From: Candidatus Giovannonibacteria bacterium RIFCSPLOWO2_02_FULL_45_28
GTDB lineage: Bacteria > Patescibacteriota > Minisyncoccia > UBA11713 > 2-01-FULL-45-33
Length of the DNA stretch: 64,000 bases
Assembly (NCBI GenBank): GCA_001780725.1
Contig: MFIM01000009.1
Span: 656-64,655 of the forward strand
Direction: 5' to 3'
Below, piece after piece: positions 3,217 through 63,787 of this stretch. Both the position numbers and the translations under genes were made by a program. Numbering within the stretch: position 1 is the stretch's first letter; the number at the start of each line of letters is the position of its first letter. Below the pieces are notes generated by a model, which was given only the letters and a program-made list of their open reading frames with translations, was not told the DNA's origin and did no database searches.

Positions 3217-3230
3217 TAAACCGTTGTTTT

Positions 3231-3276
3231 AAATCTTACCGTTTCACAGCCATAGCGGTCAAGTGGTACAATTTTT
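3231..3276 (+). repeat. 46-nt hairpin plus T-run element, copy 1 (terminator-like, downstream of alaS)
   Basis: aaatcttaccgtttcacagccatagcggtcaagtggtacaattttt; 41/46 identical to copy 2 at 3903..3948. The stem is kept through G-T wobbles. Confidence 0.6.
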
Positions 3277-3293
3277 AATTGTTGTTAATTTGC

Positions 3294-3863: not shown

Positions 3864-3902
3864 TGATTTATATATTCATATTTACTAGTTGCGTGGCTGT
3901 GG

Positions 3903-3948
3903 AAATCTTACCATTTCACAGCTATAGCGGTCAAATGGTAAGATTTTT
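3903..3948 (+). repeat. 46-nt hairpin plus T-run element, copy 2
   Basis: aaatcttaccatttcacagctatagcggtcaaatggtaagattttt. Perfect 10-bp stem cttaccattt/aaatggtaag followed by a T-run. Confidence 0.6.
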
Positions 3949-4014
3949 GGGATGGTAATTTGGACTGGAGATAGTAATTTTGGGAGTTTTTTTGGGTGAA
4001 CTTGAGGATTTGAA

Positions 4015-4060
4015 GGAAAAAAATGAAAGAAAAAAGCCGGGGCTAAAGATTTGCCTCGGC
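4015..4060 (-). terminator. putative intrinsic terminator for the 4093..4398 gene
   Basis: On the minus strand, hairpin AGCCGAGG..CCCCGGCT followed by TTTTTTCTTTCATTTTTTT. Confidence 0.4.
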
Positions 4061-4092
4061 TGAATTGACCTTTTAATCTCAACCTTATCTGG

Positions 4093-4398
4093 CTATCGGA
4101 TTTTCCTTACAAAGATCCCCGGAAAGTCATTGAAAAGCTTACCTAGTCTATTGTGTGGTTTCACTAACTGAGGATCTATCTTAAACACGAAGCGGAGTGT
4201 GAGCATAATTGTTGCCCTTATCACCACCGCAGCAAACAAACCAGCGATTCCTCCCAAGAGAAATGACTCTGTAAGAAACAGCACGGACATTCCAACCAAA
4301 AGTAGGGTTGGTAGCCACGATTCATCCAACAAGAAACGACTGAATTCAGGGATTGGCTTAAGCTTCCTGGGTTCTTCCTTGTGCTGATTTTTGTCCAT
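4093..4398 (-). CDS. small hypothetical membrane protein (2 predicted TM helices)
   Basis: Strong GGAGGAG RBS 2 nt before the ATG. Hydrophobic segments LLLVGMSVLFL and GGIAGLFAAVVI. Terminator immediately downstream. Confidence 0.5.
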   Translation of the reverse strand: MDKNQHKEEPRKLKPIPEFSRFLLDESWLPTLLLVGMSVLFLTESFLLGGIAGLFAAVVIRATIMLTLRFVFKIDPQLVKPHNRLGKLFNDFPGIFVRKIR

Positions 4399-4493
4399 AA
4401 CTCCTCCGTGTGTGGTTTATTTCCAAGCTGCCGTGTAATTCGCTCGGCAACAAAGCGTTATCTCTGTTTTTTAAGCTAGCACACGACAAAAAT

Positions 4494-4511
4494 CTTGTCA
4501 ATAGTGACAAG
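4494..4511. promoter_or_regulatory. perfect inverted repeat CTTGTCA-ATAG-TGACAAG overlapping a putative -35 upstream of the aminotransferase gene
   Basis: 7-bp arms read directly from the sequence. A TGcTATATT extended -10-like box lies at 4526..4534. Confidence 0.3.
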
Positions 4512-4581
4512 TGGCGTGGTTTTGGTGCTATATTGTTGGTAGAATTTGTCCTGTTTCCGAAAGGATCGGAGGAATTTGAAA

Positions 4582-5895
4582 ATGCGATATTTGGGACCGA
4601 GAACGGCGGCTTATTACGAAAGAATGCGAAAAGTGCTTTTTTCTACAACGGTTGAAGATTATAGACCGGTATTGAAGAAAGGTGAGGGTGTGCGTGTTCA
4701 GGATATTGACGGCAACGAATTTCTTGATTTCACATCGCAAGTTGGCAAGACAAGCACTGGCCACAGACCGGAAGAAGTTGTAAGCGCTATTTGCGAACAG
4801 ACTAAGCATTTAATTGGGGTTATCGCCAACGATTTTCAATTTTCTTGCAAGCACAATACAGGAAGCCTTTTGGGAGAAGAAGTTTCTCCGGTGCGTCTCG
4901 CGGAAGAGCTGATTCGCCTGACTCCGGTGCCTCATCCGAAAAAAGTTATTTTTGATGTTTCCGGCGCGACTGCCGTAAACGCGGCCAGCAAGATTTGTGT
5001 GGCCGCAAAACCCAAGCGCGGTTGGTTCGGAGCTTTCAGGCTTGCTTTTCACGGACGGCACGGATTTAGCTTGGACATTTCCAGTTCCAAACAAATCCAC
5101 AAATTTCTGCATCGGGACGGAATTCCGGTTTTGCGTTTTCCATTCCCAGCTCGCGGAATGCCGTTTGAAAGATATAAAACTGAATTTTTAAATACGATAA
5201 ACGGATACAAAGACGCCATTAACGCCATTTTTGTTGAGATTGTGCAGGGCGAGGGGGGAATAAATATTCCGGAAATTAAGTCTTTGAATATGATCAGGCG
5301 TGAAATTAAGAAAATCGGAGCGCTTTTTGTGGCGGATGAAATTCAAACCGGTTTGGGAAGATGCGGGAAAATGTTTGCGTCAGAATATTTAAACGATCCG
5401 CCGGATATGATAATTCTTTCAAAGGCTCTTGGGGCCGGATTGCCGATAGGCGCGGTGGTTTCCAGATGCGATATTTTGCCGAACGGCGATATTCCAAAAA
5501 GCGCGCACTCCGGAACAATGCCAGCAGACCCTTTGGCTGTGGCCGCGGCGTTAGCCAATCTGCATTTAATTGAGGAAAAATGTCTTGTGCGAAATTCGGA
5601 AAAAATGGGGCGCTATCTTACGGAAAGTCTGCATCGGGTTGCTGATGGCAATCCTGTCGTGGTTGATATTGACAACCTTGGCGGGCTGATGGTGAGAGTT
5701 GAGATGGCATCCAGAGAGGCCGCTGAAAAAGTTATTTGCGCCTGCCTTTCCGAAGAACCCGGGCTTCTCCTTATAGAGGCTGGCCAGAAAACTATCCGCT
5801 TTATGCCCCCGCTAATTGTGACTAAAGAAGAAATTGATTTGGCGCTTTCTATTTTTGCAAAAGCTCTAAATTCACTAAAAAGCCCCCTATGGTGA
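4582..5895 (+). CDS. class III PLP-dependent aminotransferase (acetylornithine/GABA aminotransferase family)
   Basis: DEIQTGLGRCGKMFA and the PLP-lysine context ILSKALGAGLPIGAV. GGAGG RBS 8 nt before the ATG at 4582; the ORF track starts it at 4546. Confidence 0.75.
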   Translation: MRYLGPRTAAYYERMRKVLFSTTVEDYRPVLKKGEGVRVQDIDGNEFLDFTSQVGKTSTGHRPEEVVSAICEQTKHLIGVIANDFQFSCKHNTGSLLGEEVSPVRLAEELIRLTPVPHPKKVIFDVSGATAVNAASKICVAAKPKRGWFGAFRLAFHGRHGFSLDISSSKQIHKFLHRDGIPVLRFPFPARGMPFERYKTEFLNTINGYKDAINAIFVEIVQGEGGINIPEIKSLNMIRREIKKIGALFVADEIQTGLGRCGKMFASEYLNDPPDMIILSKALGAGLPIGAVVSRCDILPNGDIPKSAHSGTMPADPLAVAAALANLHLIEEKCLVRNSEKMGRYLTESLHRVADGNPVVVDIDNLGGLMVRVEMASREAAEKVICACLSEEPGLLLIEAGQKTIRFMPPLIVTKEEIDLALSIFAKALNSLKSPLW

Positions 5896-18588: not shown

Positions 18589-19661
18589 AAGACTATTACG
18601 AAATTTTGGGGGTGGGGAAAAATGCGTCTCAAGACGAGATTAAGCGCGCGTACAGAAAGTTGGCGCATGAGCATCACCCCGATAAAAAAGGGGGGGATGA
18701 GAAAAAGTTTAAGGAGATAAACGAGGCTTATCAGATTTTGGGAGACGAGCAAAAACGCCAGCAGTATGATAGGTTTGGCAAGACTTTTGCCGGAGGCGGC
18801 CAATCCGGCTTTTCCGGATTTGAAGGCTTTGACTTTTCAAATTTTGGAGGTGGGTTTAACGCGGACCTAGGCGATATCTTCGAAGATTTTCTTGGCGGGC
18901 TTGGCGGATTTTCCGCCCGAGGCGGACAAGGGCGCAGGCGCGAACGGGGCAGCGATATTTCTTTGGGTATTGACGCATCGTTTCAGGAATCCGTTTTCGG
19001 CGGGAGACGGAGCGTTGTTATTGAAAAAACTTCAAAATGTGAGATCTGCGGCGGCAACGGCGCAGAACCCGGAACTAATCTGAAAAAGTGTGCGACTTGC
19101 CAAGGCACAGGTACCGTCCGCGAGATGCGGCGTTCGCTTTTCGGAGCGTTTACAGCGCTTTCGGAATGTTCTCATTGCCGCGGCAGGGGAGAATCACCGG
19201 AACGCGCATGCAAACATTGCCGCGGAGCCGGGATTTTAAGAAAATCCCAAGGCGTGGAAATTATGATTCCTCCGGGCATTCGCGACGGAGAAGCAATCAA
19301 ACTTACAGGTTTAGGAGAAGAAGTTCAAAGAGGACAAGCAGGAGATCTTTATGTTAGGATTCACGTTTTACCGCATCATATTTTCAGGCGCGAGGGGTAC
19401 GATATTTTGATGGATTTGCATCTGCCGCTTTCAAAAATGCTTTTGGGCGGAGAAGAAATGATAGAAACACTGGAAGGAAAAATTTCGGTGCGTATTCCGG
19501 AGCTTTCCAAAGTGGGAGATTTTCTGCGTCTTCGCGGAAAGGGGGTTCCAAGGGGCAGGGGAAGAGGGGATTTGTTAATAAGGCTTTTTCCCAAGCTTCC
19601 CAAAAAGCTCACGCCGCGGGCAAAAGAAATACTTTCGGATTTGGAGAAAGAGGGGTTATAA
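18585..19661 (+). CDS. dnaJ: co-chaperone DnaJ
   Basis: J-domain with HPD (HHPDKK), a G/F region, and four CxxCxGxG zinc-finger repeats. Confidence 0.9.
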
Positions 19662-20470: not shown

Positions 20471-20480
20471 GGGGGGGGGG
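20471..20480 (+). repeat. G10 homopolymer spanning the -35/spacer of the promoter of the 20503 gene
   Basis: gggggggggg read directly. Sits inside TTGGGG(-35-like)..17 nt..TGATACAAT. Confidence 0.85.
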
Positions 20481-20502: not shown

Positions 20503-22869
20503 ATGGTGAATTTTCGGATAAAATTAGCTTTGTTTTTAGTGATTTTCCTCTCTCTCTCTCTCGCACAGGCCAATGCCGCTTTTGACTTTTCTTTTGCCAA
20601 TCTTTCTCAATCCAACTCTCTTGCCTCCGTATGGGAAAATGTAAAAGACGACATACAAGACTCATGGGAAAACATAAAAGAGTGGCTACTTCCCGCTCCG
20701 CCGCCCCCATCAACCCCGCCAGGCGAGCAAAAACCGTCGCCCTCATCAACGCGCGGGAAAACATCCAATGTTGAATCCCCAAAAACATCGGATGTTGAGG
20801 AGCGCGTTTTCCCGGGCAACGATTTCGAAGAAGAAAGCAAGACAATCACATCTGAACAACCTCTCGCAACCGAGCGCGCTCCGGAACGCGTCACAGTTTC
20901 CACTAACGGAATTACAGAAGCTCGTCTTTTGCAGTCGCTCAATGCCTTGCGCGAAGAGCTATTGGATCGCTTCTCGCAGATTATCGTCTCCGCGCCCGCG
21001 CCGCTTACATTTCATGGTCCTGCGGAAACAACGCCTGCTTCCGTCGCTATGCTGGCTTTATCCCAAAGAATCAACAACCTATCCGGCAGTTCCAATTCCC
21101 CGCTTACCATCTCCGGAGCAACTTTCTCCGGCTCCAATACTTTTAGCCTTACGGATGCCGATGTTCCCGACGGCATCACTGCTTCCAGCTATCTCCCGCT
21201 TTCCGGAGGCACGCTCTCGGGCGCGCTTACCGGAACCAATCTTACTCTCTCCGGCAACCTCACCGTTTCCGGAGCTCAAACTCTTTCCGGCGCCATCACT
21301 ATTCCCTATCTCACCGCGACCTCCACCACCCAGCCCTCCACTTTCGCCTACAACGTCGGCATCGGGACGACGAGTCCGTGGGGGTTATTATCAGTACATC
21401 CCGACGGGATTACCGGTCCCGCTTTTGTGGTCGGTTCATCAACTGCAACAAACTTTATCGTAACTAACGGCGGCAACGTCGGGATTGGGACGACGAGTCC
21501 GACGGCGCTATTGCATGTGGCGCATACCACCGATATTAGTAAAACCTTAATTAACGCAACTTATCTCGGTTTCTCCAAATTTAAGTTGAGATACGATGAG
21601 GGTTCTAATTACCACATTTTGGAAATCTTTAACAGCACGCTTGCTGGGTTTGGTATTACTCTTAATGCAACAGATTGGACCAGTCGCACTGTGACAATAC
21701 GGGGACATATTGATGCTTCGATACCGCTGACCGTTCAATCTAATGACAACACTCCATCACTTGACATTTTCCAGGTGCGCAGGAGTGGCACTCTAATAGA
21801 CCTTGTGGTTAATTCAAGCGGCTTTGTAGGCATAGGCACATCCACCCCAAATTGGCTCCTGCAGGCGGCTGGAACGCGTCCGTTTTTTACCCTCTCCGAC
21901 ACCGCGGCGGGAACGGATTTGAAACATTGGTATTTGTCATCTCAAGGCGGCAATCTGTATGTGGGCACCACCACCGATGCCTATGCCACCACCACCAATT
22001 ATCAAGCATTGACTATATTAAATAACGGCAACGTCGGCATCGGGACGACGAGTCCATGGCGCACCTTTTCGGTGGCGGGGACGGTGGGATTCTCTTCTAC
22101 CCTAACTTCTTCTGCAACGGGAGATTACCTTTGCATAAATACCGACACATACGAGGTCTCAAGAGGCGCGGGAAGCATCTGCACCACTTCTTCCGAAAGA
22201 TACAAAGAGAATTTTGAAGAACTCGCCTACGGACTGGATTCCGTACTCAAACTTCACCCAATCTCATTTGAATACAAGCCCGAGCTTAATATCGGCCCAG
22301 GCCGCAGAATCGGTTTCACTGCCGAGGAAGTGATTAATGTCATTCCCGAAGCGGTTGTGCTTGATAAAGAAGGTCTGCCCAGCGGGGTTGAATACGAAAA
22401 ACTAACCGCGGTTTTGGCAAAAGCCATACAGGAGCTTTACCAAAAAATTATCTCGCTTTTTGATAAAGACAAGGAGCAAGATCAGCGCATCGCTGAGCTT
22501 GAAGCGCGTATAAATGCTCTGGAGGGAGGAGCGCCGGCGGCGGATACCTCCGCCTCCGCCGAGGCTTCGGCGGACAAGGAACCCCCGACCATCACCATCA
22601 ACGGCAACAATCCCGCGAGAATAGAAGTCGGCGCGGCATACAGCGACCTTGGCGCAACCGTCACTGATAATGTCAATGACAATCTCGGTATTGAAATGTT
22701 TGTCGGAGAAACGCCCATGGAGCAGGCATATATTGATACGAGCGAACCGAATACTTACCACATCACTTACCGCGCAACCGATCAGGCGGGTAATGTCGGC
22801 GAGGCGGTGCGTACGGTGGAGGTGTATAGCCAAGCGACAACAACTTTATCCGAAATCCCGTCTCCGTAA
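20503..22869 (+). CDS. secreted tail-fibre-like surface protein with peptidase S74 intramolecular-chaperone domain and C-terminal Ig-like (DUF5011-like) domain
   Basis: Signal peptide MVNFRIKLALFLVIFLSLSLAQANA; Pro-rich linker; three-to-four GNVGIGTTSP repeats; SERYKENFEEL..LHPISFEYKP..GFTAEEVINVIPEAV..AIQELYQKI matches the intramolecular-chaperone domain; PPTITINGNNPARIEVGAAYSDLGATVTDNV..HITYRATDQAGN is Ig-like. Confidence 0.7.
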   Translation: MVNFRIKLALFLVIFLSLSLAQANAAFDFSFANLSQSNSLASVWENVKDDIQDSWENIKEWLLPAPPPPSTPPGEQKPSPSSTRGKTSNVESPKTSDVEERVFPGNDFEEESKTITSEQPLATERAPERVTVSTNGITEARLLQSLNALREELLDRFSQIIVSAPAPLTFHGPAETTPASVAMLALSQRINNLSGSSNSPLTISGATFSGSNTFSLTDADVPDGITASSYLPLSGGTLSGALTGTNLTLSGNLTVSGAQTLSGAITIPYLTATSTTQPSTFAYNVGIGTTSPWGLLSVHPDGITGPAFVVGSSTATNFIVTNGGNVGIGTTSPTALLHVAHTTDISKTLINATYLGFSKFKLRYDEGSNYHILEIFNSTLAGFGITLNATDWTSRTVTIRGHIDASIPLTVQSNDNTPSLDIFQVRRSGTLIDLVVNSSGFVGIGTSTPNWLLQAAGTRPFFTLSDTAAGTDLKHWYLSSQGGNLYVGTTTDAYATTTNYQALTILNNGNVGIGTTSPWRTFSVAGTVGFSSTLTSSATGDYLCINTDTYEVSRGAGSICTTSSERYKENFEELAYGLDSVLKLHPISFEYKPELNIGPGRRIGFTAEEVINVIPEAVVLDKEGLPSGVEYEKLTAVLAKAIQELYQKIISLFDKDKEQDQRIAELEARINALEGGAPAADTSASAEASADKEPPTITINGNNPARIEVGAAYSDLGATVTDNVNDNLGIEMFVGETPMEQAYIDTSEPNTYHITYRATDQAGNVGEAVRTVEVYSQATTTLSEIPSP
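20548..20562 (+). repeat. (CT)7 dinucleotide tract inside the signal-peptide coding region (encodes LSLSLS)
   Basis: cctctctctctctctc read directly. Confidence 0.8.
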
Positions 22870-22887
22870 AAAATTATTTTTCTATAA

Positions 22888-22969
22888 TCCGCCCACCAGG
22901 AATCGAACCTGGAACCTTCTCCTTTCCGCCAAAGGACGGATCAGCCTCCGGCTGAAAAAGGGAGCTGCT
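22888..22969 (-). pseudogene. tRNA-Lys-derived 3' fragment (D-stem 3' side to acceptor end) carrying a 31-nt insertion in the anticodon loop
   Basis: T-arm and acceptor identical to the intact copy exactly 100 bp downstream. Shares an identical 57-bp segment (22913..22969) with the 5' fragment at 23343..23399. Confidence 0.6.
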
Positions 22970-22987
22970 TATAGAAACAGCGCTTTC

Positions 22988-23060
22988 TCCGCCCACCAGG
23001 AATCGAACCTGGAACCTTCTCCTTAAAAGGGAGCTGCTCTGCCAATTGAGCTATGGGCGG
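22988..23060 (-). tRNA. tRNA-Lys (anticodon UUU)
   Basis: Folded by hand: 7-bp acceptor CCGCCCA/TGGGCGG, D-arm GCTC..GAGC, anticodon loop CTTTTAA, T-arm CCAGG-TTCGATT-CCTGG, discriminator A. No encoded CCA. Confidence 0.85.
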
Positions 23061-23083
23061 AGGAAGCGCTGTGCTTCCACTAC

Positions 23084-23329
23084 TTAGCTTTTTAATATTT
23101 CATCCAAAAACTTTCTGCCAACGCCGGATTTCAAAAAATTTTCACGCTTTCGAGCATTCGTCTTATCGGCACAACTTTCTTGATACACCAACTCAAACGG
23201 CCCGTTTCTTCTCGTGAATTTATTGGAACCATAGTTGTGTTTCTTTAACCTTTCCCCTGGCAATAAATCTGTGCTTCCTACATAACGCTTACCATTTTTT
23301 AAACTTTTTAATACATATATGTACGACAT
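23084..23329 (-). CDS. GIY-YIG nuclease-domain protein (YazA/YhbQ-like, 81 aa)
   Basis: YIYVLKSLKNGKRYVGSTDLLPGERLKKHN...GPFELVY.E is the GIY-YIG pattern. Confidence 0.7.
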   Translation of the reverse strand: MSYIYVLKSLKNGKRYVGSTDLLPGERLKKHNYGSNKFTRRNGPFELVYQESCADKTNARKRENFLKSGVGRKFLDEILKS

Positions 23330-23342
23330 ATTTTCTTAGCGT

Positions 23343-23434
23343 AACCTTCTCCTTTCCGCCAAAGGACGGATCAGCCTCCGGCTGAAAAAGGGAGCTGCTC
23401 TGCCTCCGCCAGCCGGCGGATGAGCTATGGGCGG
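23343..23434 (-). pseudogene. tRNA-Lys-derived 5' fragment (acceptor to variable loop) with a 17-nt hairpin insertion in the D-loop and a 31-nt insertion in the anticodon loop
   Basis: Reverse complement CCGCCCATAGCTCA[TCCGCCGGCTGGCGGAG]GCAGAGCAGCTCCCTTTT[TCAGCC..GGCGGA]AAGGAGAAGGTT aligns to the intact tRNA-Lys apart from the bracketed inserts. Confidence 0.6.
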
Positions 23435-23535
23435 ATGATTTATTTTAACCCTTTTGGCTAATTTGGGCAAGCTTTGCGTTTTCCGTGCGCACTGGTATAC
23501 GCTTGAGGTAGAGAACCTATTAAAATGAGGTTAAA

Positions 23536-28493: not shown

Positions 28494-28519
28494 AACCACT
28501 ATGATATATCATAGTGGTT
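28494..28519. terminator. 26-bp perfect palindrome, bidirectional terminator between convergent aspS and tnaA-like genes
   Basis: AACCACTATGATATATCATAGTGGTT followed by TGACACGGCCCATTTTTTTATT. Confidence 0.55.
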
Positions 28520-32746: not shown

Positions 32747-32821
32747 GGGAGGAGTTTTTTCATCAACCCCACCCTTTACCCTCCCCCCAACCGGCTGTTT
32801 TTTATTCCGACAAATGTTAAA

Positions 32822-36555: not shown

Positions 36556-37673
36556 AAATAGTACTTACCGGCGGGGGAACGGGTGGGCACTTTTATCCGA
36601 TTATTGCCGTAGGGCGCGCCCTTAAAAAGGAAGCCGAGGCTGAAAATATTGCCAGGCTTGAAATCTTTTTTGTGTCAGACGATCCGATGGATCTGGATTT
36701 GCTTTTTCGCGAAAATATTAAATTTATAAAAATTCCAGCAGGAAAGATGCGCAGATATTTTTCATTGCGCTATTTCGGCGATACGATAAAAACAATCATA
36801 GGGCTTATCTCGGCTCTTTGGCGGCTTTATCTTTTAATTCCCGATGTGATTTTTGGGAAAGGGGGCTATGCCAGCTTCCCGGCGCTTTTTGTCGCGCGAA
36901 TACTCCGCATACCGGTGATAATCCACGATTCGGATGCCGTGCCCGGACTTGTGAACCAGTGGGCCGGAAAATGGGCGGATCGAATAGCAGTGTCTTTTCC
37001 CGAATCAGCGCGTTATTTTACCGGTAAAAATGTCGCAGTAACTGGAAATCCGATCAGATCGCAAATTGTTGGCGGAAATCTTGAAGAGGCAATTGAGTAT
37101 TTTAAATTGGAAGAAAATTTGCCAACAATTTTGATACTGGGCGGTTCGCAAGGGTCGGAGCGCATCAACGAAACCGCGCTCGCGATACTTGAAGAGGCGG
37201 TAAAAAAATATCAGATTATTCATCAAACCGGAAAGAATCATTTTGCGGATGTTTCCGGGCGGGCAAGGGTTTTGTTGGAAAAAAGCGAGAGTAAAAATCG
37301 CTATCATCCTTGTGGATTTTTGGATGAGGGAGAGCTACGGAATGCTTCGCGGGCCGCGTCAATTGTGGTGGCGCGCGCATCCTCCGGACTTTTTGAAATC
37401 GCAGCTTGGGGCTTGCCGGCAATTTTGATTCCTCTGCCTACGGCCGCTCAAAACCATCAGCGCGAAAACGCTTATACTTACGCAAGATTCGGAGCTTGCG
37501 AGGTGATTGAGGAAACAAACCTTACGCCGCACATTCTTTTGGCTGAAATTGACAAAATTTTAGAGAATCCGGAGCGTGTTAAAAAAATGAAATTTGCAGC
37601 AGCAGGATTTGCGCGTCTTGACGCCGCCGACAAAATCGCAAAAGAAATAATTAAACTAGGGGTTCATGAGTAA
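36552..37673 (+). CDS. murG: UDP-GlcNAc:lipid I N-acetylglucosaminyltransferase MurG
   Basis: LTGGGTGGHFYP at the N-terminus. Confidence 0.9.
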   Translation: MKIVLTGGGTGGHFYPIIAVGRALKKEAEAENIARLEIFFVSDDPMDLDLLFRENIKFIKIPAGKMRRYFSLRYFGDTIKTIIGLISALWRLYLLIPDVIFGKGGYASFPALFVARILRIPVIIHDSDAVPGLVNQWAGKWADRIAVSFPESARYFTGKNVAVTGNPIRSQIVGGNLEEAIEYFKLEENLPTILILGGSQGSERINETALAILEEAVKKYQIIHQTGKNHFADVSGRARVLLEKSESKNRYHPCGFLDEGELRNASRAASIVVARASSGLFEIAAWGLPAILIPLPTAAQNHQRENAYTYARFGACEVIEETNLTPHILLAEIDKILENPERVKKMKFAAAGFARLDAADKIAKEIIKLGVHE

Positions 37674-39027
37674 TAAAACGCGCACAAGATTTGCCCCAAG
37701 CCCGACGGGATTTTTGCATGTCGGGGGGCTTCGCACTGCGCTTTACAATTATCTTTTTGCAAAGCAAAACGGGGGACAGTTTATTTTGCGGATAGAAGAT
37801 ACCGACCGCGCGCGCCTTGCGGAGGGCGCAGAGAAAAATATTATTGAAACACTGCGGATTTTCGGTTTGGATTTTGACGAAGGGCCGATCAGGCAATCAG
37901 AACGTTTGGAGAGATACAAAGAGCGCACCGAAGAGTTGGTAAAGAAAGGCACGGCTTATCCGGATGCGGGCGCCGTTCGTTTCAAAATGGGAAAAGACGG
38001 CGTAACCGAGTTCACCGATATTATCCGCGGCGAGATTCAAATAGAAAATAAAACGCAGGAAGATTTTGTCATTTTAAAATCAGACGGCTACCCGACTTAT
38101 AATCTCGCGCATTTGGTAGACGACCACGATACGGCAATAACGCACGTAATCAGGGGCGACGAATTTATTTCATCAATGCCGAAATATATCGCGCTGCACA
38201 AGGCGTTTGGCTGGGAACTTCCTCAATACGCGCACCTGCCGTTGATTTTGGATAAAAATCGGGCGAAACTTTCCAAAAGGGAGGGGGAGGTGGCGGTTTA
38301 CGATTTTTTGGATAAAGGTTATCTCAAAGAGGCAGTTTTAAATTTCGTCGCGCTTTTAGGTTGGCACCCAAGCAAATCAGACAAAGAGCTTTTTACTTTG
38401 GAAGAACTGATAAAAGAGTTCAAGCTGGAAGATGTCCAGAAAGCCGGAGCTATTTTTGATATTCAAAAACTGGACTGGATGAACGGAGAGTACATTAGAA
38501 AAAAAACGCCGAAAGAGCTGGTTCGGCTAGCGATGCCGTTTTTGGAAAAGGCAAGATTAACTCTCATCCCAACCCCTCCCCCTTACGAAGGGGGAGGGGA
38601 GAGGGGAGGGGGTGGTTCTTCCTTTTTGGAAAAAATAATCGCTTTGGAACAGCCGCGCCTCAAAAAACTCTCGGAACTTCCTGAAAAAATTGATTATTTC
38701 TTTAAAGAACCGGAATATGATGCGGGCATGCTCAAGTGGAAAAAGATGACGAATAACGAAATCAAAAAATCTTTGGAAACTTCAAAAAATATTTTAGAAT
38801 CTCTCAAAGATAAAGATTTCAACAAAGAAAATCTGGAAAAAGTATTTTTAGAAAAAGCTGGAAACTTGTCCGCCGGAAAGGCGGGAGATAGGGGAGAGCT
38901 GCTTTGGCCATTGCGCGCCGCCCTCACTGGCCGCAAAGCCTCCCCCGGCCCGTTTGAAATAATGGAAATTTTGGGGCAAAAAAAATCTATTACGCGTGTT
39001 CAAATAGCTATTGACAAAATAATTTGA
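37666..39027 (+). CDS. gltX: glutamyl-tRNA synthetase
   Basis: FAPSPTGFLHVGG and KLSKR. Contains an in-frame GC-rich palindrome insert encoding PTPPPYEGGGERGGGGS. Confidence 0.9.
   Translation: MSNKTRTRFAPSPTGFLHVGGLRTALYNYLFAKQNGGQFILRIEDTDRARLAEGAEKNIIETLRIFGLDFDEGPIRQSERLERYKERTEELVKKGTAYPDAGAVRFKMGKDGVTEFTDIIRGEIQIENKTQEDFVILKSDGYPTYNLAHLVDDHDTAITHVIRGDEFISSMPKYIALHKAFGWELPQYAHLPLILDKNRAKLSKREGEVAVYDFLDKGYLKEAVLNFVALLGWHPSKSDKELFTLEELIKEFKLEDVQKAGAIFDIQKLDWMNGEYIRKKTPKELVRLAMPFLEKARLTLIPTPPPYEGGGERGGGGSSFLEKIIALEQPRLKKLSELPEKIDYFFKEPEYDAGMLKWKKMTNNEIKKSLETSKNILESLKDKDFNKENLEKVFLEKAGNLSAGKAGDRGELLWPLRAALTGRKASPGPFEIMEILGQKKSITRVQIAIDKII
38573..38599 (+). repeat. GC-rich palindromic micro-element inside gltX (CCCCTCCCCC-ttacgaa-GGGGGAGGGG)
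   Basis: Read directly. Preceded by AACCCCTCCCCC, a motif shared with 32765..32790 and 62744..62760. Confidence 0.6.
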
Positions 39028-44750: not shown

Positions 44751-46178
44751 ATGACGGTATTGCGCCTTTTCAACTTTCTAACGAGAAAAAAGGAGGTTTT
44801 TAGACCGCTTCGCCGAAATGTCGTGGGGTTTTATGCTTGCGGGCCGACGGTTTATAACTACGCGCACATCGGCAACCTCCGGACTTACATTTTTGAGGAT
44901 GTTTTGCGCCGTACATTGGAATACGCAGGATATAAGGTTAAGCACGTGATGAATATCACGGATGTGGATGACAAAATTATTAAAGGCGCAAACGCGACAG
45001 GCAAAAATATTCATACTTTTTCCGAGCCTTATAAAAAGGCGTTTTTTGAAGACATAAAAAAACTTAATATTTTGCCCGCGTGGAAATATCCGGAAGCCAC
45101 AAAACATATCAAAGAAATGGCCGCGCTGATTCTTAAACTTCTAAAATCCAAGCTGGCTTATAAAGCCGAGGGTTCAGTGTATTTTGATGTCTCAAAATTT
45201 AAAAACTACGGCAAACTCTCCGGATTAAAAAAAAGAGAATTAAAAATCGGTGCGCGGGTTGACGCGGATGAATACGAGAAAAACGCCGGAGAAGATTTTG
45301 TTTTGTGGAAAGCAAAAAAAACTGCGGAGCCAAATTGGCCCGCCCGCTTTGCGGGCGAGGCTCGCCCCCTTTGGGGGCGGCCTGGTTGGCATATTGAATG
45401 CTCGGCAATGTCTATGAAATATCTTGGAGCAAGTTTTGATATTCACGCCGGAGGGGTTGATCTATTATTTCCGCACCACGAAAATGAAATCGCCCAATCA
45501 GAGGGTGCGACAAATAAAAAGTTTGTGAAATATTTTTTGGAGGGAGAGCACCTTTTAGCAGACGGCAAAAGAATGGCAAAATCGGCAGGCATTTTTTTTA
45601 CTTTGCGCGATTTAGAAAAAAAAGGCTTCAGCCCCCTCGCCTTCCGGTATCTTGCGCTATCCGCTCACTACCGTTCACAGCTCAATTTTACCTTGGAGTC
45701 GCTGAAAGCGGCGGGAAATTCGCTGGAGAGGTTATGGGGGTTTGTGAGAATGCTTTCCGGAAGTCAGCAAGTTTTTTCGCGCTTAACCCTCCCTCGAAGC
45801 TCGGGGGGCTCCGACGCGTCTCAAAAACTTACTGACTTCCGTCAGCAATTTAGCTCCGCCATTTTCAACGACCTTAATACTTCAAAAGCGTTGGCTGTGG
45901 TATGGAAAATAGTCAACGAATACAACAAAAAGCCAGAAAAATTTAATGTTGGCGCCGTTTTGAGCCTTCTGTATGATTTTGACAAGGTTTTAGGACTCGG
46001 ATTACGCGAGGTGGTACAGGTAAAACCGACAAAAGAAATTTTAGCGCTTTCCAAAGAGCGCGAAAAAGCAAGAAAAGCCGGAAATTTCGCCGTTGCCGAT
46101 GAAATTCGCCGAAAAATAACGGCTATTGGCTGGCAAATCAAAGATACGCCGTCTGGGCCAGAACTTATTCACGCATAA
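44751..46178 (+). CDS. cysS: cysteinyl-tRNA synthetase
   Basis: CGPTVYNYAHIGN, WHIECSAM and a KMSKS-like RMAKSAG. Contains in-frame GC-hairpin inserts (ARFAGEARPLWGRP). Confidence 0.9.
   Translation: MTVLRLFNFLTRKKEVFRPLRRNVVGFYACGPTVYNYAHIGNLRTYIFEDVLRRTLEYAGYKVKHVMNITDVDDKIIKGANATGKNIHTFSEPYKKAFFEDIKKLNILPAWKYPEATKHIKEMAALILKLLKSKLAYKAEGSVYFDVSKFKNYGKLSGLKKRELKIGARVDADEYEKNAGEDFVLWKAKKTAEPNWPARFAGEARPLWGRPGWHIECSAMSMKYLGASFDIHAGGVDLLFPHHENEIAQSEGATNKKFVKYFLEGEHLLADGKRMAKSAGIFFTLRDLEKKGFSPLAFRYLALSAHYRSQLNFTLESLKAAGNSLERLWGFVRMLSGSQQVFSRLTLPRSSGGSDASQKLTDFRQQFSSAIFNDLNTSKALAVVWKIVNEYNKKPEKFNVGAVLSLLYDFDKVLGLGLREVVQVKPTKEILALSKEREKARKAGNFAVADEIRRKITAIGWQIKDTPSGPELIHA
45340..45377 (+). repeat. 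two GC-rich perfect mini-hairpins inside cysS (CGCCCGC-ttt-GCGGGCG and GCCCCC-ttt-GGGGGC)
   Basis: Read directly. Same class as the gltX and GT39 inserts. Confidence 0.55.
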
Positions 46179-55486: not shown

Positions 55487-55852
55487 ATGAATTACCTTGT
55501 TTTAGCAGTAATTACGGCGCTTGTTGCGTTTCCGCAACAAGCGCACGAACAGGCTCTGCCGGAAGCGCCTGCAGGAATTGCGCAAAGCGCTGCGCCTGAA
55601 ATTTTGGAGAAAATCGCCTTTTGCGAGTCGCAAGGCAGACATTTTGACGAAAACGGTAAAGTGCTCATCGGCGGAATTAACAAACATGACATCGGCAAGT
55701 ATCAGATCAACTCTCTTTACTGGCGCGAACTTGCAGAACGGCTTGGGTACGACATTGAAGCAGAAGAAGGCAACGAGGCGATGGCAATAGAACTTTACAG
55801 AAGATACGGGACTGCGCCGTGGAAGTGGTCAAAGAAATGCTGGAGCGCGTAA
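55487..55852 (+). CDS. small secreted transglycosylase-like (Rpf-type) protein
   Basis: Signal peptide; IAFCESQGRHFDENG..DIGKYQIN..YW resembles the Rpf/lytic transglycosylase core. Confidence 0.5.
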   Translation: MNYLVLAVITALVAFPQQAHEQALPEAPAGIAQSAAPEILEKIAFCESQGRHFDENGKVLIGGINKHDIGKYQINSLYWRELAERLGYDIEAEEGNEAMAIELYRRYGTAPWKWSKKCWSA

Positions 55853-59965: not shown

Positions 59966-60351
59966 TTGATTTTTCTGGCTTGAAGTAGCTTTTCGTAATA
60001 TTTGTCCGTCAAAGTGTCGTGGAATTCGTCTAGAAGGTGCGGGTTTTTAAGAGAGTTGACGACTTTAAGCGCGGATACAATTCCCTTTGTTAGTGCCAGC
60101 GAAACGAGCTCTTCAATAATGTGCGCGTGTTCCTGCTCCTTAAGGTCGTAGGCGGCTTTTTGGGCGGCGTCATCCGAAATGGAAGGCGTCGGCGGCGGTC
60201 CGCCGGTTGGCGGATGCGCGGCTTCACGTATCGCTTCGCGCACAATCTCTTTTTCGTGCTTTGCCTCGCCGCGTCCGGCAAGCTCCTTTTTTCTGGCCTC
60301 CAGCTGTTCTTCCAGCCATTTTATTTCCTCATGTACGGATTCCTGGGGCAT
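59962..60351 (-). CDS. hypothetical protein translationally coupled to the coupling-protein-like gene
   Basis: 4-nt overlap with the downstream gene start; Pro/Gly-rich middle region. Confidence 0.4.
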   Translation of the reverse strand: MPQESVHEEIKWLEEQLEARKKELAGRGEAKHEKEIVREAIREAAHPPTGGPPPTPSISDDAAQKAAYDLKEQEHAHIIEELVSLALTKGIVSALKVVNSLKNPHLLDEFHDTLTDKYYEKLLQARKIK

Positions 60352-60374: not shown

Positions 60375-62063
60375 ATGCGAGGAGCTACTTTGTGGCTTGT
60401 TATTATTTTACTTATAGCGGTTTTTTTCCGTTTTTACGATTTAAAAAATGTGCCGCCAGGGCTGTGGGCGGACGAAGCAATAAACGGGAATAATGCGGTG
60501 GAGGCGAACTGGAAAGTTTTTTACCCGGAGAATTTTGGCAGAGAAGGCCTTTTTATAAATATTCAATCGTTGTTTGTCACCGCCTTCGGCAACGAGCCGT
60601 GGGTATTGCGCTTGCCTTCGGCGATTTTCGGCGCATTGACCGTGCTGGGGCTTTATTTAATGACACGCGAACTATTTAGCGGAAAGGTTGCGTTGTTCGC
60701 TTCTTTTTTTCTGGCAACTTCTTTTTGGCATATTAATTTTTCCCGCATCGGATTCCGCGCGATTATGGCGCCGTTTTTTTTGGTCTGGAGTTTCTATTTT
60801 TTATTTTTAGGAATGAGAAAAACTGCGACCTTCTCAACACTCGGTGTTGAATCACCAAAAACACAGAGTGTTTTCCCAGTCGCAGTTTTTGCTTTGGCTG
60901 GATTACTTTTTGGCCTCGGCTTTCACTCCTATATTGCTTACCGAATTGCGCCCGTAATCGCACTTTTGCCGCTTTGGAAATTTTATAAATTGCGGTTGAT
61001 TGAAGTCCGACTTCAATCAGTTTCTGATGGAAGTCGGACTTCAATCATTTCTCGCGCTTGCACGCCGTGCCTAATTGGCCTTTTTATTTTCATGGCTTTC
61101 GTTGCCGCTCTTCCTTTGCTTTGGTATTATGCGCAGAATCCGGCGGATTTTTTGGGAAGAACTTCGGCAATATCAATTTTCCGATCACCGAACCCGCTCG
61201 CTCAATTTTCAGAAAATTTTGTAAAAACTCTGGGGATGTTCAATGTTGTAGGCGATTTTAACTGGCGGCACAATCTTGCCGGCTCTCCCCAGCTTTGGTG
61301 GTCAGTAGGAATTTTATTTCTTTTTGGTCTTTTGGTCGCATTGCGCTCCTCAACACTCGGTGTTAAATCCCAAAAAACACCGAGTGTTTTCCCGCGCAAT
61401 GCGTATAATTTTGTTCTGCTTTGGTTTGCAATCATGCTATTGCCAGTCGCTCTTTCCAACGAATCTTTGCCGCATGCCCTTCGCGCCATTGTTTTGATAC
61501 CGCCTGCGATGATTTTTGCCGCTTTGGGGCTGGAACGGATTATTGAAAAATTTAAAACGTGGCTAGAAAAGCAAAAAAACAATTGGCCGAGCAAGCTAAA
61601 CCAGCTTCTTCGCATACAGCGCGAGCTTATTTTATTGCTTTTTGTATTTTTTGCCGCCAATATTGCCCATGCTTATAACGCATACTTTCTTCGCTGGGCT
61701 CCAAATTTTAACGTTTACCAAGCATTTCAGGTCGACATTACGGAAAAGGCTCATTGGCTTAATCAACAGCCAGAAAACATTAAAAAATATGTTATTACTG
61801 ACGCCGTTGATCGTATAGATATAAGCGGCTCTCCAATGTCGCTTCAACCGGTTATTTTTATCACAAATACTTTTTTTGAAAAAGTTCAGAAAGAAAAAAA
61901 TATTTATTATTTTGGCGCAAACAATCTGAGCGGCGTTGATTGCTCCGGCAAATGCGTTATTATCCCGGTTGAATCAAAACCCACAATTTATAAAACCCTG
62001 AAACAAAAAATCCCAGGTTTGCGCTTGGATGCTTCCCCTGGGTTTGTGATTTTTAGAAAATGA
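60375..62063 (+). CDS. GT-C fold glycosyltransferase family 39 (PMT/ArnT-like)
   Basis: N-terminal DE motif (WADEAINGNNA), about 12 TM. Carries three in-frame palindromic inserts. Confidence 0.7.
   Translation: MRGATLWLVIILLIAVFFRFYDLKNVPPGLWADEAINGNNAVEANWKVFYPENFGREGLFINIQSLFVTAFGNEPWVLRLPSAIFGALTVLGLYLMTRELFSGKVALFASFFLATSFWHINFSRIGFRAIMAPFFLVWSFYFLFLGMRKTATFSTLGVESPKTQSVFPVAVFALAGLLFGLGFHSYIAYRIAPVIALLPLWKFYKLRLIEVRLQSVSDGSRTSIISRACTPCLIGLFIFMAFVAALPLLWYYAQNPADFLGRTSAISIFRSPNPLAQFSENFVKTLGMFNVVGDFNWRHNLAGSPQLWWSVGILFLFGLLVALRSSTLGVKSQKTPSVFPRNAYNFVLLWFAIMLLPVALSNESLPHALRAIVLIPPAMIFAALGLERIIEKFKTWLEKQKNNWPSKLNQLLRIQRELILLLFVFFAANIAHAYNAYFLRWAPNFNVYQAFQVDITEKAHWLNQQPENIKKYVITDAVDRIDISGSPMSLQPVIFITNTFFEKVQKEKNIYYFGANNLSGVDCSGKCVIIPVESKPTIYKTLKQKIPGLRLDASPGFVIFRK
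60821..60877 (+). repeat. 57-bp in-frame palindromic element, copy 1, inside the GT39 gene
   Basis: aactgcgacc..CAACACTCGGTGTTgaatcaccaaaaaCACAGAGTGTT..gtcgcagtt: nested inverted repeats. About 90% identical core to 61338..61402. Confidence 0.7.
60997..61047 (+). repeat. tandem 23-nt palindromes (tgattgaagtccgacttcaatca / tgatggaagtcggacttcaatca) inside the GT39 gene
   Basis: Read directly. In-frame, encoding LIEVRLQSVSDGSRTSII. Confidence 0.65.
61338..61402 (+). repeat. 65-bp in-frame palindromic element, copy 2, inside the GT39 gene
   Basis: gcattgcgc..CAACACTCGGTGTTaaatcccaaaaaaCACCGAGTGTT..gcgcaatgc. Confidence 0.7.
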
Positions 62064-63787
62064 ATAAATACGCGAATTATTTAGCAATTTTGATGCTCGC
62101 GATAATGTTTGCGCTGATGTTTGGGTCAAGCATAAATGATTCGGCGATTTTTGATGAGGTGGCGCATATCGGGGCGGGATACACATATTTGAAGTATCAA
62201 GACGGAAGGCTGAATCCGGAGCACCCACCGCTTTTGAAAAGTTTGGCCGCGTTGCCACTTGTGTTTCTGAATTTGAAATTTGACCAAGGACAGCAATTTT
62301 GGACAATAGAAAATGTGAACGATCGGCAATGGCTTGCCGGCAATCACCTTCTATATGAAGCTGGCAACGATGCAGATCAAATTCTTTTTTGGTCGCGATT
62401 GCCAATGATTTTGCTAACTATTCTTTTTGGGTGGATTTTGTTTTGGTGGGTAAAAAGGCGCTATGGAGCGAGAGTGGGATTGCTTACTTTATTTTTCTTT
62501 TCCGTCTCTCCTACTTTTTTAGCGCACGGAAGATATGTTACAACCGATGTCGGAGCCGCATTCGGATTTTTTCTTGGAATCATTTTTTTTCTAAAGTTTT
62601 TGGAAAGGTGGGATTTAAAATCAGCAATTTGGCTAGGTATAGTACTGGGGTTTGCCCTGCTTCTTAAATTTTCGCTTGTTTTATTGCTGCCGGTTTATTT
62701 GATTTTGGGAGTTTTTCGGATATTTCTCGGTCGCAGAAAAGATAACCCCTCCCCCCAACCCACTCCCCTAGGGGGAGTGGGGAATTGGGTGGGGTTCCTC
62801 TCATTATTGGGGACACTTGCTTTCTCCAGCCTCATTGCTTTAGCCATCGTTTGTATCGCTTATATCTCCCAAATCTGGAATTATCCTCATGACCAGCAGA
62901 TAAAAGATTCGCGCTACATTCTTGCGGGCTACCAATATCAATCTTTGGCAAAACTTGATTTTTGGCTTACAGAACACAAGCTAACGCGGCCGCTAGGGCT
63001 TTACTCGCAGGGCTTTTTGATGGTTGCGCGGCGCACTGCCGGTGGAAATACGGCTTACTTTATGGGCGAGGTTTCTTCAAAAGGATGGTGGTCATATTTT
63101 CCGACTCTGGCAATCACAAAAGAACAGCTTGGGTTTTATATTTTAGCGGCGGTGGCGATTTTTTGGGCAATAAAAAAACGAGCAAAGCCGGATTTTGTAA
63201 GTTTATCTGCAATTGTTTTTATAATCTTTTATTGGATTTCTTCAATTTTAAATCCGTTAAACATCGGTGTGAGGCACGTGCTCCCGACTTTTCCGTTTTT
63301 ATATTTTTTAGTGGCGAAAGAATTATCTGAAATAAAACTGAATTTGTTAACCGTAGTTATAATGCTATGGATGATTGTGGAAATAATTCTAGCTTTTCCC
63401 TACTATCTTTCTTATTACAACGCGCTGGGAGGCGGTTTGCAAAACGGCTACAAAATCGCAACTGATTCCAACCATGACTGGGGGCAGGACTTAAAACGCC
63501 TCCGCGATTATGTGGAAAAAAGTAATATTTCAAAAATAAATCTTGATTATTTCGGAGGCGGTTCACCAAAATATTATCTAGGAGAAAAATATGAAGGCTG
63601 GTGGTCATCGCGCGGCGCTCCTCCTGCCGGCTCTTATTTTGCCGTATCGCTTAATTCTTTGACCGGCAACCAAGCCAAACCGATCGGCGATGTGCAGATC
63701 AAGCCGGAAGACACCTATTCTTGGCTCAAAAACAAAACCCCGATTGCTCGGGGTGGAATATCTATTTTGATATTTAAGATAGATTAA
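62060..63787 (+). CDS. second GT-C glycosyltransferase family 39 (ArnT/PMT-like) paralogue
   Basis: DEVAH..GY..HPPLLK N-terminal motif, multi-TM. In-frame GC palindrome insert at 62744..62800. Confidence 0.7.
   Translation: MNKYANYLAILMLAIMFALMFGSSINDSAIFDEVAHIGAGYTYLKYQDGRLNPEHPPLLKSLAALPLVFLNLKFDQGQQFWTIENVNDRQWLAGNHLLYEAGNDADQILFWSRLPMILLTILFGWILFWWVKRRYGARVGLLTLFFFSVSPTFLAHGRYVTTDVGAAFGFFLGIIFFLKFLERWDLKSAIWLGIVLGFALLLKFSLVLLLPVYLILGVFRIFLGRRKDNPSPQPTPLGGVGNWVGFLSLLGTLAFSSLIALAIVCIAYISQIWNYPHDQQIKDSRYILAGYQYQSLAKLDFWLTEHKLTRPLGLYSQGFLMVARRTAGGNTAYFMGEVSSKGWWSYFPTLAITKEQLGFYILAAVAIFWAIKKRAKPDFVSLSAIVFIIFYWISSILNPLNIGVRHVLPTFPFLYFLVAKELSEIKLNLLTVVIMLWMIVEIILAFPYYLSYYNALGGGLQNGYKIATDSNHDWGQDLKRLRDYVEKSNISKINLDYFGGGSPKYYLGEKYEGWWSSRGAPPAGSYFAVSLNSLTGNQAKPIGDVQIKPEDTYSWLKNKTPIARGGISILIFKID
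62759..62781 (+). repeat. GC-rich palindrome CCCACTCCCC-ta-GGGGAGTGGG inside the second GT39 gene, preceded by AACCCCTCCCCCCAACC
   Basis: Read directly. Encodes DNPSPQPTPLGGVGNW. Confidence 0.6.

Follow-up and report, generated by a model that had tools for sequence, protein, structure and literature searches.

Palindromic C/G-block inserts in the reading frames of gltX and a GT39 gene of a Giovannonibacteria contig: candidate members of a dispersed repeat of BoxC/PIT architecture

Do the short C- and G-tract palindromes that interrupt housekeeping genes of Candidatus Giovannonibacteria bacterium RIFCSPLOWO2_02_FULL_45_28 belong to one repeat family, and if so, to what kind of repeat? We addressed this question in a 64,000-nucleotide stretch of contig MFIM01000009.1 (positions 656 to 64,655, forward strand), hereafter the window, with all coordinates counted from its first letter. 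An earlier note on this DNA had grouped hairpins in gltX, cysS, the second GT39 gene, the spacer after dacB and a tRNA-Lys pseudogene into one mobile or recombinogenic family, with a leader shared at three sites. Read directly, the named sequences were all present where that note had placed them. Three of these sites, namely the insert in gltX (E1), the insert in the second GT39 gene (E2) and a copy downstream of dacB, are best explained as members of a dispersed, structure-defined repeat of the BoxC/PIT/TM architecture that survives in coding DNA only as a surface loop and is neutral or selfish, a reading to which we assign a probability of roughly 0.6. The repeat is defined by a pyrimidine C-block, a loop, a complementary G-block, a linker of 2-5 nt and a mirror second G-block, with an additional outer C-block in some copies.

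E1 occupies positions 38571-38617 (~47 nt) and has the layout AA-CCCCTCCCCC-TTACGAA-GGGGGAGGGG-AGA-GGGGAGGGGG-TGGTT. The features of the gltX site are:

37666-39027: gltX, the glutamyl-tRNA synthetase (GluRS) gene that hosts E1
38539-38549, + strand: left copy of the 11-nt direct repeat TTTTTGGAAAA, which codes FLEK, at the gltX site
38571-38582, + strand: left end of E1, AA plus C-block CCCCTCCCCC, the pyrimidine arm
38583-38589, + strand: loop TTACGAA, in which TT/AA lengthens the stem and leaves an ACG triloop
38590-38599, + strand: G-block 1 GGGGGAGGGG, pairing Watson-Crick with the C-block
38600-38617, + strand: linker AGA, G-block 2 GGGGAGGGGG and tail TGGTT
38623-38633, + strand: right copy of TTTTTGGAAAA, to the right of E1

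As a single strand, E1 folds into a 12-bp stem (-16.8 kcal/mol). G-block 2 is an exact mirror of G-block 1, reversed and not complemented, with G-run lengths of 5-A-4 and 4-A-5, and the tail matches the right-end consensus GGGG(A/T)GGTT(CT). The open reading frame (ORF) continues through E1, as had been claimed for this hairpin, and contributes the peptide PTPPPYEGGGERGGGG to GltX, the stretch across the insert reading PTPPPYEGGGER. E1 is surplus sequence relative to the solved GluRS structure 4gri. In an AlphaFold2 model of GltX with a mean pLDDT (predicted local distance difference test) score of 75.5, residues 303-316, which form the E1 loop, scored below 50 and had no secondary structure, lying between helices 282-295 and 316-331; residues 192-264 were likewise poorly modelled, and a second small insert, LSAGKAG (402-407), showed the same low-confidence behaviour. 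The E1 insert is thus predicted to sit in a disordered surface loop.

E2 (62744-62796, ~53 nt) has the layout AACCCCTCCCCCC-AA-CCCACTCCCC-TAG-GGGGAGTGGG-GAATT-GGGTGGGGTT, with the following parts:

62060-63787: second GT39/PMT_2 gene, the host of E2
62744-62758, + strand: outer C-block AACCCCTCCCCCC plus AA
62759-62781, + strand: inner hairpin CCCACTCCCC-TAG-GGGGAGTGGG, 10-bp stem
62782-62796, + strand: linker GAATT and outer G-block GGGTGGGGTT, the partner of the outer C-block and an approximate mirror of the inner G-block

The hairpin reported in this gene was confirmed: E2 folds as a nested double hairpin (-19.9 kcal/mol) and is in frame, with 62744-62796 translating as NPSPQPTPLGGVGNWVG and the GT39 protein carrying DNPSPQPTPLGGVGNWVGF.

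The third site lies between genes:

32765-32792, + strand: decayed copy AACCCCACCC-ttta-CCCTCCCCCCAACC in the spacer after the Peptidase_S11 (dacB-like) gene, its G arm gone

The proposed three-site leader, the 12-mer AACCCCTCCCCC, is absent from 32765-32792; in the window it occurs exactly at 38571 and 62744 only, and allowing one mismatch adds no further site. Membership of the spacer site in the family is indicated instead by CCCTCCCCCCAACC, which it shares with E2, and by GGGTGGGGTT on the opposite strand (0.01 and 0.03 occurrences expected, respectively); the hairpin attributed to it was not found, the minimum free energies being 0 and -1.2 kcal/mol. The orthologous spacer of the relative L124 holds a complete C-C-G element, AACCCCACCC-TTTA-CCCTCCCC-CAA-GGGGAGGG, and the window copy corresponds to its left two blocks. 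By this comparison, the dacB-downstream site is what decay has left of an element that L124 still has whole at the orthologous position. The spacers after dacB in L124 and in another relative, L125, carry one or two intact copies, and the L125 spacer has a copy with E1's exact loop, TTACGAA.

Coincidence is one alternative to weigh. Runs of C and G are simple sequence, and because shuffled C/G tracts fold too, E1 and E2 have modest z-scores for folding, only about -2.5 (-2.5 to -2.8). Shuffle tests contradict an origin by chance: with one mismatch allowed, 0.23 copies of AACCCCTCCCCC are expected in the 64 kb, and none of 100 shuffles reached two copies, which answers the earlier note's own reservation that the motif might be common by chance. 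The window is not G+C-rich (40-49% G+C), and the clusters of C- and G-runs are therefore sharp local islands; both kinds of run combine only at 38573-38612 and 62746-62812, a third cluster of at least three runs (19541-19569) consisting of G-runs only. A census of all hairpins in the window gave 34 stems of 8 bp versus ~20 in shuffles, a modest excess, so that the signal lies in specific families and not in palindromes at large. Nor are the inserts assembly artefacts, because GluRS and GT39 proteins identical to those of the window, from Candidatus Giovannonibacteria / Parcubacteria bins (GW2011_GWC1_44_10, A3G55), occur on 43 and 48 contigs, with four NCBI accessions each; orthologous copies are also found in other assemblies. 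We give chance or artefact almost no weight. The shared words support the view that E1, E2 and the dacB-downstream remnant form one family of three and are not a coincidence. This much of the proposed single family stands; the cysS hairpins and the tRNA-Lys inserts are separate families, described below.

What unites the family goes beyond a plain palindrome: a C-block, a loop, a complementary G-block, a short linker and a mirror G-block follow one another. We examined this order with a purine-motif triplex test, which asks for a pyrimidine block, a complementary purine block and a third block giving G*G-C, A*A-T or T*A-T triads, under the ITxF definition (Holder 2015) of consecutive Y-R-R blocks, stems of 6-15 nt, at most one mismatch, loops of 1-6 nt and a triad-compatible third block. 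E1 passed as ACCCCTCCCCCTT / ACG / AAGGGGGAGGGGA / G / AGGGGAGGGGGTG, with 13-nt blocks and 1+1 mismatches; for E2 to pass, the blocks had to be cut to 8 nt, the second loop to extend to 7 nt and a T to be admitted in the purine block. Copies in the relatives L002 (10 nt) and L254 (12 nt) and in the spacers of L125 (10 nt) and L124 (9 nt, perfect) passed as well. A strict three-block scan returned E1 alone in the window, against none in 30 shuffles, and six more matches in ~135 kb of related loci. Read by eye, G-run lengths were mirrored in most of the copies printed for this test. Stop codons are few or absent in most frames of the elements. Rfam, applied to the whole window at gathering thresholds, reported two tRNAs only, and on twenty element-bearing loci it reported an unrelated c-di-AMP riboswitch and no described RNA family that corresponds to the element.

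We then asked how far the architecture extends. A scan of one genome per species (596 Gb) with AACCCCTCCCCC N0-25 GGGGGAG gave at least 120 stretches, from Chloroflexota, Alpha-, Beta- and Gammaproteobacteria, Planctomycetota, Longimicrobium, Ruminococcus, Bacteroidota and others. Among the matches listed, the stem was completed by a further GGG in 72 of 123, and an inner block was present in 27 of the 33 with a long gap; it is the structure of the hits, not their number, that is non-random. A metagenome scan with the E1 hairpin core and loop (CCCCTCC N0-3 TTACGAA N0-3 GGAGGGG) recovered the hairpin CCCCTCC-TTACGAA-GGAGGGG in at least 120 stretches, against the few that we roughly estimate chance would give. 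A GGGGNGG third block lay at most 50 nt downstream in 102 of the 121 unique copies listed, versus 14 of 600 random 50-nt windows, and was followed by TT in 78 copies. Its interruption, at the position read as the mirror position, was T in 53, A in 47, G in 1 and C in 1, that is, A or T in 100 of the 102. This A-or-T rule is what a purine-motif triplex allows, would not be produced by inverted or direct duplication, and hints that a triple-stranded fold may matter in vivo. A near-identical E1 was present on a contig of 65% G+C (L155). Viral contigs yielded only six stretches with the element, and phages are accordingly not an obvious carrier. The family has members beyond this genome and falls within a known, very widespread class, the G/C-block repeats (BoxC, PIT, intrastrand triplex motifs), a connection that had been missed.

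At the listed metagenome loci, elements are rarer in long ORFs than random positions are: at least 60 codons stayed open on both sides in 28 of 131 loci, versus 176 of 360 random positions. The in-frame subset has Pfam domains on either side of the element that identify ValRS, MetH, FeoB, RecG, two AMP-binding enzymes, a GltD-like oxidoreductase and a PEP-utilising enzyme. The ValRS locus, L173, is from Pyrinomonadaceae (Acidobacteriota), where ValRS orthologues of 891-995 residues have or lack the element and one has inverted dimers at two sites. The subfamily of the ValRS element reads AAGCT / CCCCTCC-TTACGAA-GGAGGGG / T / a second hairpin with a TTCG loop and visibly covarying stems / GGGGTGGTT / CTCT. 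Housekeeping genes that have the element with this extra covarying hairpin in frame include those for ValRS, MetH, FeoB and RecG (L173, L206, L203, L159, L202, L190, L208); it reads SPPYEGGVAAASADGVVLS or, in other frames, other peptides, and orthologue lengths differ by multiples of the element. Tandem arrays also occur, with three copies at a 43-nt period in L182 (2273-2379) and three at ~75-nt spacing in L169 (8432-8603). In L137 (Ga0308176_10009397), an acetyl-CoA-synthetase-like ORF of 956 stop-free codons (1753-4620, - strand) contains CCCCTCC-TTACGAA-GGAGGGG and also an in-frame insert of ~265 residues with an IS200-like Y1 transposase domain (HAHVLL...YIVNNP), bounded by ~22-nt inverted repeats and an 8-bp direct repeat, CACGAACG.

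Comparison with close relatives showed that copies come and go. The earlier note had proposed aligning orthologous aminoacyl-tRNA synthetases for presence or absence of the insert, and among GltX orthologues the E1 site proved hypervariable, filled or empty even between close ones and not conserved across distant relatives. A GltX of 86% identity lacks E1 and has a different palindrome there. The relative L003 carries the palindrome GGACGTCGGACGTCC-actt-GGACGTCCGACGTCC, translated DVGRPLGRPTS, and L126 another palindrome; L125 has a simple tandem repeat, L001 a decayed C/G-block copy at the same site, and L002 an intact four-block copy at a different position of gltX. In L124, a 21-nt remnant, GAAGG-AGA-GGGTGATTCT, lies between the same direct repeats. 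It comprises the last part of G-block 1, followed by the linker and by G-block 2, and is therefore a deletion remnant. The hypervariable site as a whole is bracketed by the TTTTTGGAAAA pair (FLEK...FLEK), and its contents differ among relatives (palindromes, simple tandem repeat, remnant). Because the same 11-nt pair flanks the L124 remnant, it is not an insertion scar of E1.

The GT39 gene tells a similar story. E2 occurs in the window and in L254 (NNPSPQPPPLRGGG) and is absent from all other GT39 orthologues aligned, although L253 keeps a remnant, GGG-AAG-GTGGTGGGGTT. In a neighbour-joining tree, the two E2-filled genes group together on short branches. L254 also has a second copy elsewhere in the same gene, its loop in the other orientation (PPNPLSFVRRGG). 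An alternative view of L253 and L124 as empty sites, with insertion next to a resident GGGGTGGTT target, was rejected: besides the second G-block, both still have the linker and some of G-block 1, so that they are deletion derivatives. Empty ValRS sites in Pyrinomonadaceae, which lack 'GVV' codons, also count against a resident target. Finally, the GltX sequences P0001 and P0002 are identical at 265 of 270 positions before the E1 site and at 120 of 168 after it, a mosaic allele whose breakpoint falls at the element; P0002 has a single source and could be chimeric. In these comparisons the family behaves as a dispersed, unstable element.

Could the element instead be kept because it benefits its host? 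A hairpin, triplex, G-quadruplex or Shine-Dalgarno-like GGAGG core might tune transcription, translation pausing or mRNA stability, or the Pro/Gly loop might have a role of its own. In favour of this, the three blocks are strongly conserved in structure, stems visibly covary in the second hairpin of the soil-metagenome subfamily, GGAGG lies inside the G arms, and the C arm and loop contain CCTCCTTA, which we take to resemble the 3' end of 16S rRNA. Presence and absence in close relatives, sites that differ by lineage, decay and deletion remnants, and the placement of inserts in predicted disordered loops all speak against such a benefit, and the E. coli elements had shown no activity as promoters or terminators and no regulatory effect in earlier studies (PMC4666352). 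We regard a host benefit as improbable. E1 and E2 look like tolerated selfish or mutational DNA that codes proline/glycine-rich floppy loops, and not like a new machine.

A further alternative is that nothing moves: replication template switching (quasi-palindrome mutation) would make an imperfect inverted repeat locally perfect in place. Template-switch mutations of this kind have reportedly been shown to create hairpins by Ripley, by Lovett, and by Loytynoja and colleagues. The likeness is to perfect short hairpins in coding DNA that need no element, and several unrelated hairpin families indeed lie side by side in the window. A plausible case is in cysS:

45341-45382, + strand: cysS mini-hairpins of another family, CGCCCGC-ttt-GCGGGCG and GGCtCGCCCCC-ttt-GGGGGCG-GCC

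This segment folds into two mini-hairpins, each a 7-bp stem closed by a TTT loop (-22.5 kcal/mol, z -4.1 for the segment), and is in frame, giving the CysS peptide PARFAGEARPLW. Relative to solved CysS and to L125/L126, it adds 6 amino acids beside the GRPGWHIEC motif; it is common to L124 and absent in L125/L126, whose ancestral, already quasi-palindromic GGCCCCGGGCGGCC it appears to elaborate. The cysS hairpins are thus as real as had been claimed, but they share no word with E1 or E2 and failed the three-block test, and they may have arisen in place. The gltX site, too, has the marks of a slippage hot spot, with its 11-nt flanking direct repeats, a tandem repeat in L125 and palindromes in L003 and L126. 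For E1 and E2 themselves, template switching fares worse, because words and loops recur without change at unlinked sites and across phyla: exact 10-14-mers are common to E1, E2 and the spacer copy, and the E1 stem and loop are identical to copies at other loci of relatives and on unrelated high-G+C contigs. The mirror third block, reversed and not complemented, is moreover left unexplained, since neither inverted nor direct duplication can make it. Template switching explains the cysS and TCCGCC...GGCGGA mini-hairpins well and E1 and E2 less well, and as an account of the family we consider it unlikely.

The TCCGCC-loop-GGCGGA hairpins form a family of their own, with four exact matches in the window versus 0.06 expected (18912-18926, 22555-22574, 23405-23420 and 60199-60214), mostly inside ORFs. 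The tRNA-Lys inserts, which had been described as being of the same style as E1, are 6-bp-stem members of this other family. An imperfect copy in gltX (38868-38885) codes the LSAGKAG loop, which is missing in many orthologues. The stretch 22887-23445 holds an intact tRNA-Lys(ttt) (22987-23061, - strand) and, on either side of it, overlapping fragments, two in all, of a second tRNA-Lys, which carries a 31-nt anticodon-loop insert (TCAGCCGGAGGCTGATCCGTCCTTTGGCGGA) and a 16-nt D-arm insert. Between the fragments lies an 81-aa ORF (23084-23329, - strand) that is GIY-YIG-like by eye; the arrangement looks like a cassette of nuclease and clean tRNA inserted into an insert-bearing tRNA-Lys gene.

Other palindromes of the window were recorded alongside these. 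The first GT39 gene (60375-62063) contains a 45-nt in-frame element twice, at 60834-60878 and 61350-61394 (STLGVESPKTQSVFP, STLGVKSQKTPSVFP); the second copy has a perfect 13-bp stem, AACACTCGGTGTT-aaatcccaaaa-AACACCGAGTGTT (z -7.3). CysS hairpins of L124 have nearly that loop (aaatccccaaaa) on different stems (KPGFKSPKKPGFF), and those of L126 have the same kind of stem with another loop, which suggests that the 45-nt GT39 element and the L124/L126 CysS hairpins may be a third family with covarying stems. The CysS linker at 45777-45815 is a second variable region, TTAACCCTCCCTCGAAGCTCGGGGGGC, possibly a decayed C/G-block copy; relatives have other hairpins there. The first GT39 gene also has an 11-bp stem at 60997-61019. 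A perfect 26-nt palindrome, AACCACTATGATATATCATAGTGGTT, lies at 28494-28519, and a 12-bp stem, GCGCTTGTTGCG-tttc-CGCAACAAGCGC, at 55517-55544. A ten-G run (20471-20480), possibly a slippage-prone tract, stands ~20 nt upstream of the start of a 788-aa ORF (20503-22869), near a TATGATACAAT box.

If the family does move, it might do so as a miniature element of the repetitive extragenic palindrome (REP) or REPIN type, mobilised in trans by a hairpin-recognising Y1 single-strand transposase (IS200/IS605 or REP-associated tyrosine transposase, RAYT, type). Its size and palindromic form fit REPs, of which intragenic examples are documented (PMC3733652); the Pyrinomonadaceae ValRS orthologue with inverted dimers at two sites ('SPPYEGG...ATPLLRKEGS') and the joint presence of the element and a Y1 domain in the L137 gene point the same way. 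Yet the terminal inverted repeats and the 8-bp direct repeat of the L137 transposase are its own and unrelated to the element, the elements bear no GTAG or CGTC tag, and tblastn with the Y1/RAYT domain found nothing in the window or in eight loci of the candidate phyla radiation (CPR), ~200 kb of the lineage being covered. There is likewise no transposase near the E. coli copies (Holder et al., PMC4666352), and the element is rare in viral contigs, with the six stretches given above. We judge this mode of mobility quite unlikely.

The reading of E1, E2 and the dacB copy as a dispersed repeat of BoxC/PIT/TM architecture would entail the following course of events. New copies would arise by a copy-and-insert or recombination process that relies on the folded single strand. 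In a gene-dense genome, an insertion would survive only if its length is a multiple of three, it brings no stop into the frame being read and it lands in a surface loop. Tracts of C and G seldom hold stop codons, and they code Pro-rich and then Gly-rich peptides. Hairpin-mediated deletion would remove copies again. Throughout, the element would be neutral or selfish for the host and no functional part of the enzymes.

Several observations weigh against this reading. The window holds just two intact copies and one remnant. Neither a transposase nor a donor copy nor other direct proof of mobility came to light, the Y1/RAYT search being negative over the window and the CPR loci (~200 kb of the lineage), and no flanking target duplication was seen by eye, without a systematic test, at E2, L254, L002 or 39 subfamily copies. 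The literal TM_ECO consensus, CCCTCNCCC N3-6 GGGNGAGGG N3 GGGNGAGGG, used as a regular expression, failed on nine of nine sequences, seven of them family copies. The raw genome-scan count was rejected as evidence, given ~110 chance matches by our own uniform-composition estimate. C/G-run blocks are of low complexity, and part of the similarity between phyla could be convergent. Triplex formation is a prediction from sequence symmetry, and translation of the inserts is deduced from open frames. A G-quadruplex pattern (four G runs of at least 3, spaced 1-7 nt) is matched by E1, E2 and the spacer remnant (minus strand); because the L124 and L125 copies do not match it, the G-quadruplex is not the common denominator of the family.

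A bolder version of the repeat reading is that the three-block unit, ending in TT, is an active, self-propagating 'nano-element' across many phyla, its folded or triplex strand serving, without a dedicated transposase close by, as the substrate of an unrecognised copy-insertion process that would routinely colonise reading frames in gene-dense genomes (CPR bacteria, Pyrinomonadaceae). We hold this to be an unlikely extension; if true, essential enzymes, aminoacyl-tRNA synthetases among them, would generally gain new Pro/Gly loops from it. If the more modest reading holds, BoxC/PIT 'triplex' repeats would extend beyond the spacers of proteobacteria and cyanobacteria into CPR bacteria and Acidobacteriota (Pyrinomonadaceae), where they would be read through as protein. 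It would join two literatures, on non-B DNA repeats and on in-frame palindromes of the Rickettsia type, and would offer natural filled, empty and remnant alleles for studies of how such repeats originate and decay. A practical warning follows as well: when a CPR protein, be it an aminoacyl-tRNA synthetase, shows an 'insertion' peculiar to its lineage, this can be repeat DNA instead of an adaptive domain. Of greater interest is how so small and structurally constrained a unit came into so many phyla.

Among known systems, one parallel is with the Rickettsia palindromic elements (RPE), reportedly described by Ogata et al. in 2000. RPEs are 100-150 bp long, in contrast to ~47 nt for E1 and ~53 nt for E2, and are not known to share sequence with these elements. 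As with RPEs and intragenic REPs, palindromic repeats stand in frame in genes for functional proteins, which gain ~15-30 residues where these are tolerated, and some relatives have the repeat while others lack it; E1 and E2 share with RPEs the feature of lying in frame in functional genes and being absent from orthologues. Intragenic REPs and in-frame Rickettsia RPEs have both been documented already (Di Nocera et al. 2013, PMC3733652), and literature searches on this motif in CPR bacteria, or on in-frame PIT elements, returned nothing specific.

In the described REP superfamilies, the repeats have a GTAG or CGTC tag and go together with RAYT genes, and neither feature is found here. Both tags are absent from E1 and E2 on direct reading, and no end tag was seen in the subfamily consensus AAGCT...GGTTCTCT, where individual linker hairpins do contain CGTC. 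The REPIN-RAYT system (Bertels and Rainey; PMC8049555) resembles the present family in its short hairpin units, inverted dimers in some lineages and intragenomic populations; it differs in that no RAYT was found in the sequence at hand, there is no tetranucleotide tag, and a third mirror block is not a REP feature. Of the two marks of miniature inverted-repeat transposable elements, terminal inverted repeats and a target-site duplication, the ends AACCCC...GGGGTT constitute inverted repeats, and no duplication was seen by eye, without a systematic test, at the sites named above.

The closest match is with the BoxC / PIT / TM_ECO repeats of Holder et al. (2015; PMC4666352), of which 3610 copies were reported in 262 proteobacterial genomes; cyanobacteria and Thermus had G/C-rich triplex motifs of other kinds. 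In E. coli, the copies occur in intergenic DNA only, form triplexes in vitro, lack a neighbouring transposase and are tied to local genomic instability (PMC4666352); Kaplan et al. (2016; PMC5100583) read the same motif as a G-quadruplex-hairpin switch. The present family departs from these repeats in that the literal consensus is unmatched, E1 and E2 lie in frame within ORFs, whereas the E. coli copies (like the dacB spacer copy) are intergenic, the host is a CPR bacterium, and the triplex is predicted from sequence. It agrees with them in block order (C-stem, 3-7 nt loop, G-stem, ~3 nt loop, and a second G-stem with G*G-C and A/T*A-T triads), in being G/C-rich within a genome that is not, in its dispersed, multi-copy occurrence, often as inverted pairs and without a mobility gene, and in local instability, seen here as a hypervariable site and a mosaic allele that breaks at E1.

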